NCBI GenBank assembly: GCA_963780185.1
Contig: CAWABA010000003.1
Location: 1 to 64,000 of the forward strand
Direction of reading: 5' to 3'
DNA: 64,000 nt
Source: Candidatus Bathyarchaeota archaeon
GTDB taxonomy: Archaea; Thermoproteota; Bathyarchaeia; Bathyarchaeales; Bathycorpusculaceae
Position numbers and translations under genes: made by a program. Numbering within the stretch: position 1 is the stretch's first letter; each line of letters begins with the position of its first letter. Of the stretch, positions 9,832 to 15,407 are shown piece by piece. Under the pieces are notes generated by a model. The model was not told the origin of the DNA. It saw only the letters and a program-made list of their open reading frames with translations, and made no database searches.

Positions 9832-11970
9832 ATGAAAACAAACGCACTAGGGAACATAGCAAGAACCCTAAATCTCAAGAAGCTCGCAAAGCCTGCAGTT
9901 CTATGCATCAGCGCACTCTTCATCATAAGCATGGTGTCAACATTCAGCTTCAGCGGAGTCCATGCTGCCTCAGCAATGCTGCCGGTGACGACATCGGGAA
10001 ACCAGATACTTGACTCAAACGGCAACGTAGTGTACCTACGCGGCGTCGGCATGGCCGGCATGGCCCCAGACTTGATTTTCTGGGGATCAGGCGGCGGCGA
10101 CAGCTGGGCAGACCAATGGACAGCAGCCTCATCAGCCTCCGTCACAGACACATTCGCGGAGATGCAATCCATCTGGCACATCAACATGATACGCATCTTC
10201 ATCTACCCCGAATGGTGGATGACAAACAACATAGTGCCAGCCACCGCATCAGGCCAAGGATACAGCACCACCGCAGTCAGCACACAAACCTATCTGCAAA
10301 CCTTAGCAAGCGAAGCAGAACAATACGGCATATACCTAGACATAGCACCCTACCAACTCACCGCGTACCAAGGCTCATTCAGCTCCGACACATACATCTC
10401 GTCAAACATGGCTGGATCACAAGGACTACCCATGTCAGGAAACTGGGACACCGCAGCAACCAGCTACCTCGCAAGCACAGGCCAAACAGAACAAGCCTAC
10501 TGGACAAGTTTCTGGACATCAATGGCAAACGCACTCAAAGCGTACCCAAACGTCATCTTCGAAGCCTGGAACGAACCAAGCGGAAACTCCGCCAACACCG
10601 TACCCACAGGCTACCTCAGCTACCTAACAACCATGTACAACGCAATCAGAGCAACAGGATCAACAAACCTCATCATGATGCAGTGGCAACCCGGATGGGA
10701 ACCCAACGCAGGCCTAAACCTAAGCTGGGCATCACAAATCAACACAGCCCTAGGCGGAAACCCAACCAACATCGTCTACACCACACACCTCTACTACTAC
10801 TCACCCTCCGACAACAGCCAATTCTGGGACCAAAGCGGCTCAGGCTCAAACGGAACACCAATGACTGTAGCACAACTCGAAACACAGTTGCAAAGCCTCG
10901 AAACCGGCATGGGAATCAACGCACCACTAGTGATCAATGAAGAAGGCTCATGCCTCTCATCCTCAAGCAACACACAAAACGACTACACCTGGTTCGGCAA
11001 CATACTTCAAGCCCAAAACGCCCTGGGAATCGGCGCAGGAGCCTACTACTGGCTAAGCAGCAGCGGACTAGGCGGAACCTACGACGGCGAATATCTCCTG
11101 ACAAGCGGCTACTCACCGAACCCGATGGGACAAGACTACATTAACGCCTACACGGCACCAATCATCACAACACCCACACCAACGCCCACACCCACTCCAA
11201 CGCCAACACCGACGCCCACCCCAACCCCGACACCAACGCCAATAGCCACCCCAACTCCAACACCTACGCCAACACTCACTCCAACTCCAGCCTCAAGCAC
11301 AATAACTGCTTCAGCTGGGAACGGAGGATCAATTAGCCCAAGCGGAACCGTCAGCGTAACCAACGACGACAGCCAAACCTTCACAATCGCAGCGGACAGC
11401 GGATACCAAATCTCTGACGTCACAGTCAACGGCAACTCAGTAGGCGCAGTCGCATCATACACATTCAGCGACGTCCAAAACTCAAACACAATCACCGCAA
11501 CCTTCACAGCCAATCCAACGACACCAACCAACCCGACGGCTCCAGCTACAAGCTCAATCACTGCCTCAGCGGGAAACGGCGGCTCAATAAGCCCCAGCGG
11601 AACCCTCAGCGTCACCGACGGCACCAGCCAAACCTACGCCATCACCGCAGACGACGGCTACCAAATATCCGATGTAGCGGTAAACGGAACTTCAGTAGGC
11701 GCAGTCTCATCGTATACGTTCAGCAGCATCCAAGACTCATACGTAATCACCGCGTCCTTCACACAAACTCCGCCGGCTTCAACTCCAACCCCACACCCGA
11801 ATCCACCGACCCTAACCACAACAGCGCCGACACACCATCAAACACACCACCACCGCAGCCACGGCAGCACCTACCACATCAGCTACAGAAGCATCCAGCG
11901 CCACAGAAGCACGATGAATTCGTTCGGATGGAAAAGCTTCCCCATGCTATTGGGGAGTCTCTTCCGCTAA
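9832..11970 (+). CDS. Secreted glycoside hydrolase family 5 (cellulase family) with PT linker, two InlB-B-like repeats and His-rich tail
   Basis: Signal peptide; VYLRGV, NMIRI, acid/base WNEP, HLY, nucleophile NEEG; (PT)n linker; two ITASAGNGGSISPSG...YTFS repeats. Confidence 0.85.
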   Translation: MKTNALGNIARTLNLKKLAKPAVLCISALFIISMVSTFSFSGVHAASAMLPVTTSGNQILDSNGNVVYLRGVGMAGMAPDLIFWGSGGGDSWADQWTAASSASVTDTFAEMQSIWHINMIRIFIYPEWWMTNNIVPATASGQGYSTTAVSTQTYLQTLASEAEQYGIYLDIAPYQLTAYQGSFSSDTYISSNMAGSQGLPMSGNWDTAATSYLASTGQTEQAYWTSFWTSMANALKAYPNVIFEAWNEPSGNSANTVPTGYLSYLTTMYNAIRATGSTNLIMMQWQPGWEPNAGLNLSWASQINTALGGNPTNIVYTTHLYYYSPSDNSQFWDQSGSGSNGTPMTVAQLETQLQSLETGMGINAPLVINEEGSCLSSSSNTQNDYTWFGNILQAQNALGIGAGAYYWLSSSGLGGTYDGEYLLTSGYSPNPMGQDYINAYTAPIITTPTPTPTPTPTPTPTPTPTPTPTPIATPTPTPTPTLTPTPASSTITASAGNGGSISPSGTVSVTNDDSQTFTIAADSGYQISDVTVNGNSVGAVASYTFSDVQNSNTITATFTANPTTPTNPTAPATSSITASAGNGGSISPSGTLSVTDGTSQTYAITADDGYQISDVAVNGTSVGAVSSYTFSSIQDSYVITASFTQTPPASTPTPHPNPPTLTTTAPTHHQTHHHRSHGSTYHISYRSIQRHRSTMNSFGWKSFPMLLGSLFR
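11168..11290 (+). repeat. Pro-Thr coding tandem repeat (ACN-CCN)n
   Basis: About 20 TP units with synonymous codon variation. Confidence 0.85.
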
Positions 11971-12083
11971 GACTCCAAAACCCCATTTTCCTTTTTTAGT
12001 TTTAAATCCGCAAACGCCTTCTTTCACTAGCAACTTTAGCAAAACTAATATGTCACAAAATAGAGTTATCCATTTAAGAACAG

Positions 12084-12174
12084 TTCTCGGGGAGCTGGGA
12101 GTGTACCCGGCTGAGAGGACGGCTAGTTGCTGTCGACCCTTAGAACCTGAACCAGGTAATGCTGGCGGAGGGAA
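12084..12174 (+). ncRNA. TPP (THI-box) riboswitch
   Basis: Conserved segments CGGGG, GCTGAGA, GACCC, AACCTGAACCAGGTAATGCTGGCGGAGGGA; P1 TTCTC/GGGAA; directly upstream of thiT. Confidence 0.93.
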
Positions 12175-12180
12175 AAAACA

Positions 12181-12780
12181 GTGAAAATACCTAAAATATT
12201 AAACAAACAACAATCCGAACCTGAAAATCCTAAACCAAATGAAAAAAGCAACAACAATATTTTCTCAACTAAAGTACTTGCTGAAATAATAATTTTCGTC
12301 GCTATGGCGGCGGCGCTGGCTCTGGTCAGCCATTTCTTCTTTGAGCTTCCACAAGGAGGAACCATAAACCTCGGCATGCTGCCTATCTTTTGGCTGGCTT
12401 TGCGTAGAGGACCAAAAATCGGAATATTCGCAGGCGCAGTCTTAGGCGTAGTTGACCTTGCCATAGAGCCTTTCGTAGTTAACCCTGCCCAATTCATCCT
12501 TGATTACCCGTTGGCGTTTGCATGCCTTGGGCTGGCAGGATTTTTCCGCAAAGCAACGGTTGTCGGTCCAATCGTTGGAGTTGTCGTTGGCGGCACGGGA
12601 CGTTTCATATCGCACTTCGTTTCAGGAGTCGTTTACTTTGCCAGCTACGCACCACCCGGCGTAAGCCCAGTCGTGTACTCTTTAGCCTACAATGGCAGCT
12701 ACATGATTCCAAGCATAATAATTTGCGCAGTAGTAATCGGCATACTGCAAAGAAGCAATAGACTGGACATTTACATTTGA
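12181..12780 (+). CDS. thiT: Energy-coupled thiamine transporter S component ThiT
   Basis: LPQGGTI...MLPI, QFILDYPLAF, RFISHFVSGVVYF, YSLAYNGSY motifs; preceded by a TPP riboswitch. Confidence 0.9.
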   Translation: MKIPKILNKQQSEPENPKPNEKSNNNIFSTKVLAEIIIFVAMAAALALVSHFFFELPQGGTINLGMLPIFWLALRRGPKIGIFAGAVLGVVDLAIEPFVVNPAQFILDYPLAFACLGLAGFFRKATVVGPIVGVVVGGTGRFISHFVSGVVYFASYAPPGVSPVVYSLAYNGSYMIPSIIICAVVIGILQRSNRLDIYI

Positions 12781-12789
12781 GGCTCAAAA

Positions 12790-13789
12790 ATGGGGAAACT
12801 GGCAAACAAAGAACTACAAACGCTTCTCGACTGCATAAGGAAGGATTCCCGAGTAGTCATTCCGCCCATGCTCGGCTATGATTCAGGCGTCCACGAAGTA
12901 GACGGCAAATACCTTGTCGTAGCCAGTGACCCATGCACAGACGTCCCCGAAGAATGGTTCGGCTACCTGCTCATCAACTACGCCGCCTCCGACGTCGCCC
13001 TGTCAGGCGCCAAACCCCAGTTCTGCACCATCAACCTGCTCGGACCACCCTCAACCAAAGCTGAAGTTTTCCAAAAAATAATGAAGCAAACATGCAAAGC
13101 CGCCGACGAACTCGACATCGCAATCGTGCGTGGACACACGGGCACTTATAACAGCTTGCAGGGCTTGGTTGGGGTGGCAACCGTTTATGGGACGGTTAAC
13201 TTGGAGAAGCTGATTACGCCGGCAAACGCTAAGCCAGGCGACCTGATTTTGTGCACGAAGCCGCTTGGTTTGGAAACGGTCGTCAATTTTTCCTTGCGGC
13301 AAAAGAAGCTGGCGGCGGAGTTGTTTGGGGCAGAGCAGCAGGTAAAGCTTTCTGGGCGGGTTCGCATGCAAAGCTGCGTCGGCGAAGCGTTGCTACTGGC
13401 GAAAACTGGGTTTGTCCACGCGATGCATGATGCCACTGAAGGCGGGTTTGTGGCGGCGCTAAATGAGCTTGCGCAGGCGTCAGGGGTGGGTTTTAGTGTG
13501 AATTGGGAAAAAATCCCGAAATCAACCGAGCTTATGTCATTGCAGAGTTTTTTTAACCTCAGCGATGAGCAGGTGCTCTCTATGTCTTCAACTGGAACGG
13601 TTTTGGCAGCGGTCGATGCTCAAGCCACCGAAAAAGTGACAGCTTCTCCTGAGGCAAAGCGGGTTAACGGCGCATTTCATAGGCAAATTTACAGAAAACA
13701 AAGAGCGTGTACTCAGTAGGTTGGGGAAGGGGATGCCTTTTCCCGAGGTTCCCAAAGACCCGTACAGCCAGATAGTTTCAGGGAAATAA
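12790..13789 (+). CDS. AIR synthase-related (PurM/HypE/ThiL fold) ATP-binding protein (frameshift near 13645)
   Basis: MGKL start, GYDSG, ASDP, ASDVALSGA, GHT, MHDATEGG, SSTGT; the C-terminus continues in the +1 frame to DPYSQIVSGK*. Confidence 0.82.
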
Positions 13790-13847: not shown

Positions 13848-14264
13848 CTAAGTGTTATCAGTTGTTTCAAATATTATCTCAAGCTCTGTTTCACAGAAGG
13901 TTATTTTGAAATGCTTAAACACGTCTGCTCTACCAAGTAGCCGAGGGACTTCATTTGAGTCGGCGAAGGCAACTTTTGCGTCAAAGGATGTGTCGCCAAT
14001 TTTCATTTTGATTATGTGCACGTAAGCAGGAATAAGCGTTCTTCCTACCCCGATTATTGGGCGGTATTCTCCTTGAGAGAAATTGAGCCCTAAGAGCTCA
14101 GCGTCATTTCTACTGAACAAAGACAAATCTGCACCGCTGTCAACGTAGACCCGAAAAGTATGCCATTCCTCAGTTTTTGAGCAAAGAAAAACTGTGGCTT
14201 TTGGCCGGTTGATTATCCCTGATCCAAGAGGTTCAGGCGAATATTTGAAAACGTAGCTTTTCAA
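13848..14264 (-). CDS. Retropepsin-like (clan AA) aspartyl protease
   Basis: Catalytic VDSGADLS, flap GVG, LLGR motif. Confidence 0.82.
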   Translation of the reverse strand: MKSYVFKYSPEPLGSGIINRPKATVFLCSKTEEWHTFRVYVDSGADLSLFSRNDAELLGLNFSQGEYRPIIGVGRTLIPAYVHIIKMKIGDTSFDAKVAFADSNEVPRLLGRADVFKHFKITFCETELEIIFETTDNT

Positions 14265-14473
14265 AGAATCAGTACATCCGCAGATTGGATATACTCAATT
14301 ACTATTTCCTCTGTCTTAGCGTCTGGGCATTTTTTTAGCGCCTTTTTTAGTGCCTCACTTGAGGTTCTGCCCGCAGCCACTATTTTATTTTTGTATATTG
14401 CCACATCATTTCCACTGTATTTCTTGTATTCCTCTGCCGTTATCTGTGGCGCTTCAATTATTTTTTCAGGCAC
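14261..14473 (-). CDS. Small DUF5678-like protein
   Basis: KYSGNDVAIYKNKIVAAGRTSSEALKKA..IEYI pattern; 4-nt overlap with the protease gene; GTG start at 14473 chosen. Confidence 0.65.
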   Translation of the reverse strand: MPEKIIEAPQITAEEYKKYSGNDVAIYKNKIVAAGRTSSEALKKALKKCPDAKTEEIVIEYIQSADVLIL

Positions 14474-14528
14474 TTTGTACACCTGTAGGCTAGTTATTGT
14501 GACTTTTGAGGTATTAAGTTTTCCACAA

Positions 14529-15407
14529 TTATCTTTTAAGCTCCGACAGAACAAAGTTGACTATTTCTTCGGCGATGTTGACTTTGGCAACCACTTGGAG
14601 CCCTTTCCACCCAGGCTGACTGTTGACATCTACGATGCGTGGTCCGTTGGGTCCTTCAAGGATGTCTACGCCTGCAATTTTGCAGCCTACCGCCTTGGCT
14701 GATTTTATGGATAGGTCTTCAAATTCTTTGCTGATTTGGGCTGGAGCAGGTTTGGCTCCTCGGCTGTAGTTGGTTTTCCAGCCTTCTGCAACGCGCCGCA
14801 TGGAGGAGACTACGCGGTCGCCGATTACGAAAGCGCGGATGTCTGAGTGCCCGTGGGGTACGAATTCCTGCATGTAGATGACGCCGTGGTGGAAGGTGAT
14901 GGCTTTGAAGATTGTGTCGGCGATGTCTACGTCGTTTACCCGTGTGGCGCCTTGCCCGCGTGAACCAAAAATCGGTTTGACAACGATGTCGCCGCCTAAC
15001 TCGCCGAAGGCTTTGAGGGCTTCGTTGACGCTTTCAGTGGCTAAGGTGCGGGGAACGGGAACGCCGATGTCCTCTAAGAGCGCCAATATGTCGTATTTGT
15101 CGACGCAGTGCTCGATGGCGGTCGGCGGGTTCACCATGTAGAAGCCTTGGCGTTCCAGCTTGTAGAGCATATCCATTCGGAAAACTAGCTCTTCCAGTGA
15201 GCCGCGCCCGATTGGGCGAATTATTAAGCCGTCTAAGTCGTCCAGAAGGCTTGTGCCAGCTACTTTGAAGTAAGGTTTGTACGCGAGTCTTGCGACAATC
15301 CGTGGAAAAGTGAAGCATTCATACGCTATGCCTCGTTTAGTCAATGCTTCCCGAACTTGGGTGCTGCTCCATGCTTCAGGGTTCCGAGTCATTATTCCAA
15401 ATTTCAA
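14529..15407 (-). CDS. RimK family ATP-grasp alpha-L-glutamate ligase (possibly MptN/CofF-like)
   Basis: KPIFGSRGQG, YMQEFV, DIRAFVIG, WKTNYSRG, GVDIL, DVNSQPGW. Confidence 0.88.
   Translation of the reverse strand: MKFGIMTRNPEAWSSTQVREALTKRGIAYECFTFPRIVARLAYKPYFKVAGTSLLDDLDGLIIRPIGRGSLEELVFRMDMLYKLERQGFYMVNPPTAIEHCVDKYDILALLEDIGVPVPRTLATESVNEALKAFGELGGDIVVKPIFGSRGQGATRVNDVDIADTIFKAITFHHGVIYMQEFVPHGHSDIRAFVIGDRVVSSMRRVAEGWKTNYSRGAKPAPAQISKEFEDLSIKSAKAVGCKIAGVDILEGPNGPRIVDVNSQPGWKGLQVVAKVNIAEEIVNFVLSELKR

Follow-up and report, generated by a model that had tools for sequence, protein, structure and literature searches.

A thiamine pyrophosphate riboswitch aptamer that contains the Shine–Dalgarno sequence of thiT in Bathyarchaeia

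Introduction

Thiamine pyrophosphate (TPP) riboswitches of bacteria can act on translation by a so-called direct design, in which the ribosome-binding site (RBS) lies in the core of the aptamer. According to the sections of a comparative survey that deal with this design, it is most common among TPP, prequeuosine-1 (preQ1) and S-adenosylmethionine type I (SAM-I) riboswitches, a purine-rich conserved 3′ region takes the place of the RBS in the TPP class, and control is classed as direct when no more than 15 nt separate the end of the aptamer from the start codon (Barrick and Breaker 2007, PMC2258182). Here we describe such an arrangement in an archaeon, at the 5′ end of thiT, the gene for the S component of an energy-coupling factor (ECF)-type thiamine transporter, within the first 64,000 nucleotides of contig CAWABA010000003.1 of a Candidatus Bathyarchaeota archaeon (assembly GCA_963780185.1); this whole 64-kb stretch is referred to below as the window. 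The category of direct control reportedly traces to Rodionov et al. 2002.

The locus resembles several described systems and departs from each of them. With the bacterial direct TPP riboswitches it shares the aptamer family, an RBS in the conserved 3′ region, the lack of a platform and the expected OFF logic, but it differs from them in its archaeal host, in a promoter of the type with a B recognition element (BRE) and TATA box, in a layout that dominates a whole genus and family, in a near-vestigial helix P1, and in a variable base that is fixed as G and thereby gives a full GGAGG. The thiM-type riboswitch of E. coli has the same aptamer, and its Shine–Dalgarno (SD) sequence is masked with TPP, as would be the case in the window; however, thiM carries a separate anti-SD/SD platform, whereas the SD of the window lies inside the aptamer, 9 nt from the start codon, where an anti-SD hairpin could not fit. 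The RSthiT element of Lactococcus lactis, as described in PMC8862789, is likewise a TPP riboswitch immediately upstream of thiT, but in a bacterium, and in a thiT leader from Clostridia (locus L121) the aptamer is followed by a platform of the terminator type, with a hairpin and a T-run. The SAM-III riboswitch, or SMK box, is another case in which the aptamer contains the SD. The same principle of burying the RBS without a platform is found in the preQ1 and SAM-II aptamers as treated in the bacterial survey (PMC2258182), whose folds and ligands are unrelated to those of TPP riboswitches.

Archaea have been described as using riboswitches sparingly, with 79 counted in Euryarchaeota, 6 in Crenarchaeota and 1 each in Korarchaeota and Thaumarchaeota, and Bathyarchaeia are not listed in the portion of the survey that gives these counts (McCown et al. 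2017, PMC5473149). TPP elements have been reported in Thermoplasmatales (Thermoplasma and Ferroplasma) in front of transporters (10.1101/538918, a 2019 preprint); these are similar to the element described here in that the host is archaeal and the gene encodes a membrane transporter, but the window belongs to Thermoproteota/Bathyarchaeia. According to a 2021 paper, the fluoride riboswitch of Thermococcus is alone among natural archaeal riboswitches in having been determined experimentally (PMC8241225). Our literature search for riboswitches together with Bathyarchaeota or Bathyarchaeia returned incidental mentions only (for example PMC9723716), and a search for archaeal riboswitches together with TPP returned no relevant paper and no test of an archaeal TPP riboswitch.

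Results

Identity and anatomy of the aptamer

In an Rfam cmscan of the window, the TPP model RF00059 gave the sole match above a gathering threshold, at positions 12078–12191 of the forward strand (63.3 bits against a threshold of 54.3; E 4.6e-10), and this match spans the full model (positions 1–105 of 105). A search of the whole genome (2.75 Mb, 93% complete) found this element as its only TPP match. A reading of the window made from the letters alone (hereafter the sequence-only reading) had described a canonical THI-box before thiT at 12084–12183 and had named the Rfam TPP model as a check; its coordinates and description were essentially correct, and the score lies above the threshold. 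Mapping the Rfam alignment onto the window gives the following parts.

12078–12191, forward strand: TPP aptamer (RF00059 match), with a structured core at 12083–12179
12083–12087 with 12175–12179, forward strand: helix P1
12088–12091 with 12137–12140, forward strand: helix P2
12094–12098 with 12107–12111, forward strand: helix P3
12111–12116, forward strand: CUGAGA (junction J3-2), the conserved pyrimidine-sensing motif of TPP aptamers
12118–12122 with 12130–12134, forward strand: P3a, a variable hairpin
12141–12145, forward strand: junction J2/4
12146–12171, forward strand: P4–P5 arm (pyrophosphate-sensing), with a local hairpin of -8.0 kcal/mol
12146–12149 with 12168–12171, forward strand: helix P4, CCUG/GAGG, three pairs and an outer G.G mismatch
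12152–12155 with 12162–12165, forward strand: helix P5, CCAG/CUGG
12166–12167, forward strand: junction J5/4 (CG)

The core motifs of the window are CUGAGA at 12111–12116 and ACCUGA...GCG-N-AGGGA at 12145–12173. CUGAGA and the motifs of the P4/P5 arm are ligand contacts in solved TPP aptamer structures, and every core motif, CUGAGA included, is invariant in all 83 of the 83 relatives that we aligned, which come from many genera. Among these sequences P3, P3a and P5 vary on both sides in a compensatory manner (the variable pair of P5, for instance, is AU in 67 and GC in 16), the inner three pairs of P2 and of P4 are invariant, and 86.1% of the whole structure is paired, as compared with 34–55% when the partner strand is slid. 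RNAalifold independently recovers P2, P3, P3a, P4 and P5 and predicts no P1. On the strength of the covariance score, the core motifs, the covariation and the thiamine context, we assign the element as a TPP riboswitch.

Position of the Shine–Dalgarno sequence and the start codon

Three features define the initiation region of thiT.

12181–12780, forward strand: thiT, S component of an ECF-type thiamine transporter, 199 amino acids, GTG start
12167–12171, forward strand: SD core GGAGG, formed by the G of J5/4 and the 3′ strand of P4, 9 nt before the GTG
12172–12180, forward strand: A-rich spacer GAAAAAACA, which includes the 3′ strand of P1 (12175–12179)

GGAGG occurs only once in 12078–12200, at 12167–12171, and the shorter SD-like four-base motifs present elsewhere in the aptamer are none of them at a usable distance from a start codon. 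The GTG at 12181 is the only in-frame ATG, GTG or TTG between the upstream stop codon at 12157–12159 and an ATG at 12303, and the latter falls inside the first transmembrane helix (TM1), so that a start there would cut TM1. Seven nucleotides separate the conserved AGGGA, whose last base is 12173, from the GTG, and the 3′ strand of P1 ends at 12179, one base before this codon; by the 15-nt distance used for bacteria the leader is thus direct, as are 65 of the 93 related instances introduced below. Because the SD lies only 9 nt before the GTG, there is no room for a separate expression platform. Indeed, we found no terminator-like site in 12078–12200, no T-run in 12172–12180, no platform of the thiM type (an anti-SD with a separate SD downstream of P1) and no downstream hairpin at this locus. 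The sequence-only reading had placed the sole GGAGG in the 3′ strand of the aptamer with no room for a terminator, and both points hold: the motif belongs to J5/4 and P4.

The 3′ end of the 16S ribosomal RNA (contig C9) reads ...GGATCACCTCCTAAG and carries CCUCC. When SD-like four-base motifs were located in front of the first start codon of 1,703 long open reading frames (ORFs) of the genome, they began 515 times at -15 to -10, as compared with 97 times at -25 to -20, and the GGAG of thiT starts at -14, within this genome-wide peak. These findings demonstrate that the organism uses SD-led initiation at the spacing seen at thiT, and thiT itself presumably follows the same rule.

We also observed that a nine-base segment of the aptamer, GAACCTGAA (12143–12151; the last three bases of J2/4, the 5′ strand of P4 and AA), recurs at 12217–12225, 36 nt into the thiT coding region, with the related motifs ACTGAACC and CAACCTGA in relatives. 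Common ancestry of the coding sequences may be all that accounts for this repeat, which could alternatively be a further internal anti-SD.

Promoter

Upstream of the aptamer the window has a promoter-like element and a predicted start of transcription.

12041–12051, forward strand: BRE/TATA-like element AAAACTAATAT, with a TATA-like hexamer from 12046, 43 nt before the GGGGAGC of P2
12075–12078, forward strand: predicted transcription start, ~26 nt past the centre of the TATA box and 5–8 nt before P1

In upstream regions of relatives aligned at their right-hand ends, an A-rich segment followed by a TAATAT or TAAAAT box stands at an equal distance. In particular, a TATA-like hexamer starts -44 to -36 before GGGGAGC in 59 of 86 distinct upstream regions; a regular expression finds none in 9 regions, several of which show one by eye. 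The distance from an archaeal TATA box to the start of transcription is usually ~26 nt. The conserved box upstream, taken together with this usual spacing, suggests that the aptamer forms the very 5′ end of the mRNA. A transcription start downstream of the aptamer would contradict the sequence-only reading, and the promoter box would place the start upstream of the aptamer instead. Consistent with an archaeal host, a scan for sigma-70 promoters revealed none of relevance upstream of the aptamer.

Conservation of the layout among relatives

To count layouts, we searched the loci that we fetched for aptamer cores by a regular expression built on the core motifs, not by Infernal. This expression missed loci L036 and L054 and found no element in ~20 of the ThiT-derived loci L061–L123, most of them bacterial by record title and a few of them truncated archaeal ones; all of these are excluded from the counts, the base of which is 93 distinct riboswitch instances, with an ORF called if it had at least 120 codons for amino acids.

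In 65 of the 93 instances the start of such an ORF falls between -1 and +15 nt from the end of AGGGA, and for 55 of those 65 it falls between +5 and +8; the start codons of the 65 are ATG (32), GTG (28) and TTG (5). The 28 instances that are not direct comprise 23 in which the ORF was classed as remote and 5 with none. About 13 of the 28 are true platform types, including L121 and L122, whose record titles are bacterial, and the remaining ones belong to the group of the window; a start-like codon is in position in them, but the ORF is interrupted or the codon is non-canonical. Four loci from the same genus (L024, L068, L089 and L092) have ACG/CGC, ATT or ATA at the start position while the ThiT frame continues, which could reflect non-canonical initiation, sequencing error or decay.

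In all 57 of the 57 direct ORFs that align with ThiT, the start lies 3–10 nt after the aptamer, whereas the N-terminus that precedes the protein core varies from 7 to 59 residues. The position of the start codon thus follows the aptamer rather than the protein. Among the 65 direct cases, 57 have a G as the base N of GCG-N-AGGGA, whereas the Rfam consensus has a weakly conserved u at this position. A G here completes GGAGG and leaves the outer position of P4 unpaired; indeed, the pair at that position is non-standard in 74 of the 83 aligned sequences. Since the sequences are related, we take this preference as a hint and not as a test. On these counts the SD-in-aptamer layout is the dominant predicted arrangement in this uncultured archaeal class.

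Distribution and other architectures

The TPP model matched in 34 of 36 genomes of the same genus (the two without a match are 58% and 65% complete), in 43 of 61 genomes of relatives, and in 93 of 151 genomes of the class, where the matches fall in 48 of 79 genera and number as many as 4 in a single genome. In a sample of the phylum it matched in 30 of 151 genomes, including 20 of the 131 outside the class, in four families. The sequence-only reading had suggested a survey of related genomes, in which the element does recur, with the geometry of the start conserved; its premise that such an element is a rarity and a novelty in archaea was overstated, given a TPP element in 93 of 151 genomes of the class.

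The genes downstream of the aptamer in the class are thiT (by tblastn), thiW, thiC, a permease of the cytosine/purine family and another ECF S component, a set that, as far as gene content tells, is a normal thiamine regulon. Pairs of TPP riboswitches on one strand, separated by 1.3–2.3 kb and each followed by a transporter-like gene of its own, were seen in L090 (at 80–145 and 1433–1496), on contig C19 of genome G080 and on contig C42 of genome G157.

Two further architectures occur in the phylum. In four leaders from other families (L124, L126, L127 and L130), the aptamer has a strong P1 (GGTAGCT/AGCTACC) and is followed by an anti-SD, CTCCTTCT, and then by an SD GGAGGTG (AAAGGAGGTG) before an ATG. 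The gene after the platform encodes ~341–344 amino acids in L126, L127 and L130; in L124 the only ORF called by our script starts directly after the aptamer. Judged from these elements, the four leaders are a classical sequestering platform of the thiM type in archaea. In two thiW leaders of the same class as the window (L031 and L032), which represent the third architecture, P1 is CCCCU/AGGGG, and its G-rich 3′ strand (AGGGGGA / AGGGAAAAA) apparently provides the SD, 12–15 nt before the start. The anti-SD/SD platforms in other families argue that masking of the SD is this lineage's way of using the aptamer, and SD masking would then be a theme common to the three architectures.

In a thiC leader from the same family (L044), a 14-codon ORF begins 6 nt past the aptamer and stops just short of thiC, whose own start is at +84 nt; this short ORF may encode a leader peptide that is controlled by the riboswitch and involves translational coupling.

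A candidate mechanism and its alternatives

We consider it likely, in agreement with the direct translational OFF switch proposed in the sequence-only reading, that the element is a platform-less translational OFF switch at the 5′ end of a thiT–purM-like mRNA. This reading starts from what we observed, namely the identity and conservation of the aptamer, the geometry of SD and start codon, the usage of SD sequences in the genome and the position of the promoter, and adds to it TPP binding, occlusion of the SD and OFF logic as the presumed consequences. At low TPP the three-way junction would be unlocked, with P1 open and P4 (three pairs and a G.G mismatch) breathing, and the CCUCC of the 30S subunit would pair with GGAGG and initiate at the GTG at 12181. 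At high TPP the ligand would dock both arms and fix P1 as well as P4 and J5/4; the SD and the A-rich spacer would be buried, the 30S subunit excluded, and synthesis of the importer and of the downstream enzyme would fall. The calculated energies are -8.0 kcal/mol for the P4–P5 hairpin of the window alone and -10.6 kcal/mol for the SD:anti-SD pairing, and in the ligand-free ensemble the unpaired probability is 0.33–0.65 for the SD bases, at least 0.9 for the spacer at 12172–12178 and 0.7–0.9 for the GUG.

In favour of this reading, P1 is weak at the very place where the ribosome has to land: in the window (GUUCU with AAAAC) it forms four of five pairs with a duplex energy of -1.1 kcal/mol, which is also the median of 67 direct cases, as compared with -6.9 kcal/mol in 18 cases with a downstream platform. 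Several points weigh against the reading. Canonical P1 pairs are present in only 54.7% of cells at fixed alignment columns, and shuffled flanks are at least as complementary to the 3′ tail as the native 5′ flank. A canonical P1 is thus unsupported, and high-affinity TPP binding might not survive. Moreover, nearest-neighbour folding forms the P4–P5 hairpin without ligand, so the contrast between the ON and OFF states rests on tertiary stabilisation that the folding does not model. GGAGG is largely aptamer core, and its conservation alone is therefore no proof of a function as SD; the enrichment of G at position N is confounded by shared ancestry; and in ~10 relatives the ORF is broken or the codon at the expected start is non-canonical.

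The strongest competitor, which overlaps with the reading above and which we regard as possible but unlikely, is that P4 and not P1 is the switching helix. In this case the 5′ flank (of the AGUUCU, AGGUCU and AGGUUU types) would be an anti-sequestor that mimics the SD (AGGU/AGUUC): without TPP it would pair with J2/4 and the 5′ strand of P4, whose (G)AACCU is an internal anti-SD, and so free the SD, and TPP would displace it. In the window GUUCU at 12083–12087 is perfectly complementary to AGAAC at 12142–12146 (J2/4 and the first base of P4), and the minimum free energy fold uses this duplex (-4.5 kcal/mol) instead of P1 (-1.1 kcal/mol). Across the 67 direct cases the median energy of the flank duplex is -4.5 kcal/mol versus -1.2 kcal/mol for shuffled flanks, with none of 200 shuffles below -1.7 kcal/mol; the duplex is stronger than P1 in 53 of the 67, and in 38 of the 67 the best duplex engages at least two of the three CCU bases of P4. 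When the flanks are reduced to 42 distinct types, the median is -4.15 kcal/mol, a value reached by none of 500 shuffles. These sequences are related, however, and the shuffle tests therefore overstate the effect. Platform-type relatives, furthermore, are also complementary (median -3.2 kcal/mol in 19 cases), and the predicted accessibility of the SD rises only from 0.36 with a shuffled flank to 0.395 with the native one, which is higher in 42 of the 67. Counts of pairs are uninformative here, as the 3′ partner is the invariant core of the aptamer; because this partner never varies, covariation on both sides is impossible and covariation cannot decide the matter.

Less probable still is that the aptamer acts mainly on the abundance of the transcript, either through termination at downstream U-runs or through decay of untranslated or ligand-bound mRNA. 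Termination in archaea needs oligo-U only and no hairpin. Short runs of four T are present in the early coding region (~12255–12262 and 12296–12299), and secondary decay of untranslated mRNA is common; the runs, however, sit in sequence that codes for conserved residues (NIFST), the stretch from the aptamer to the start lacks a T-run, 12078–12200 contains no terminator-like site, and a purely transcriptional mode would leave the tight geometry of SD and start codon unexplained.

We regard it as very improbable that GGAGG is only a part of the aptamer core that goes unused as an SD, with initiation independent of the SD or elsewhere. AGGGA is conserved in all TPP aptamers whatever their platform, and some archaea are described as initiating without an SD (PMC8241225), but the genome has its SD peak at an equal distance, no other in-frame start keeps TM1 intact, the start is fixed with respect to the aptamer in all 57 ThiT ORFs, and N is G in 57 of the 65 direct cases. 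Finally, that the element is a decaying relic that no longer binds TPP, with thiT expressed constitutively, might be read into the near absence of P1 and the mismatched outer pair of P4, but is scarcely credible for an element whose core motifs are invariant in 83 sequences, whose P3, P3a and P5 show compensatory changes, and which is kept in 34 of 36 genomes of the genus, the two misses being only 58% and 65% complete.

ThiT and the neighbouring genes

The product of thiT matches Pfam PF09515 (E 1.6e-48) and the NCBIfam equivalog TIGR02357 (153.9 bits against a cut-off of 108.45). Two homologues of EcfT (CbiQ) are encoded elsewhere in the genome, on contigs C1 and C6. A search of the genome (93% complete) found no ThiC, and uptake of thiamine is on this account plausibly essential. 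The closest ThiT loci, at 95–60% identity, come from metagenome-assembled genomes (MAGs) of Candidatus Bathyarchaeota/Bathyarchaeia, in line with the sequence-only reading's call of a probable bathyarchaeon as the host; Bathycorpusculum follows at ~47% and Clostridia at ~35%. Four loci in records labelled Limnocylindrales, Acidoferrum, Methanocella or Armatimonadetes (L062, L063, L084 and L097) have ThiT loci 51–81% identical to that of the window; L062, L063 and L084 share the riboswitch layout, and the regular expression saw no aptamer in L097. All four are probably mis-binned contigs in public MAGs.

On either side of the riboswitch and thiT the window has the following.

9832–11970, forward strand: cellulase of glycoside hydrolase family 5 (GH5), 712 amino acids, upstream of thiT
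11983–12003, forward strand: T-rich stretch TTTTCCTTTTTTAGTTTT after the GH5 gene, read directly from the sequence
12790–13719, forward strand: gene of the PurM/aminoimidazole ribonucleotide (AIR)-synthase fold, 309 amino acids, 9 nt after thiT

The stretch TTTTCCTTTTTTAGTTTT looks like an archaeal oligo-T terminator; if it acts as one, thiT would belong to a transcription unit separate from the GH5 gene. The PurM-fold gene is probably co-transcribed with thiT. Its product falls under every NCBIfam cut-off (SelD 86 versus 125, ThiL 79 versus 184 and HypE 75 versus 252), and tblastn detected a match to it in 72 of the 132 loci that we fetched, for the most part as the next gene after thiT. The product is probably a thiamine-linked kinase-like enzyme.

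In the GH5 cellulase a long linker is made of Pro-Thr repeats, and an Ig-like segment of ~90 amino acids (ITASAGNGGSISPSG...) occurs twice. Farther downstream, on the reverse strand at 13848–14554, a gene for a retropepsin-like aspartyl protease (138 amino acids) overlaps a DUF5678 gene (97 amino acids) by 4 nt.

Discussion

The design in which a TPP aptamer contains the RBS is already known from bacteria. What stands out in the comparisons made here is its apparent dominance in an uncultured archaeal class, a P1 that is near-vestigial, and a 5′ flank with unusual predicted complementarity to the internal anti-SD. The locus thus offers a candidate of ~105 nt, with a defined promoter, a predicted transcription start, an SD and a start codon, for ligand-controlled initiation in an archaeon that uses SD sequences. 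If the flank does act as an anti-sequestor, a complete switch would be contained within ~100 nt of aptamer without an expression platform; such a switch, in which P1 has been given up as the switching helix, would be mechanistically distinct and the first of this kind among archaeal TPP riboswitches.

That TPP riboswitches are routine in Bathyarchaeia corrects the picture of archaea as poor in riboswitches. For these uncultured and apparently thiamine-dependent organisms, the element marks genes of thiamine uptake, and it marks the PurM-fold gene beside thiT as linked to thiamine.

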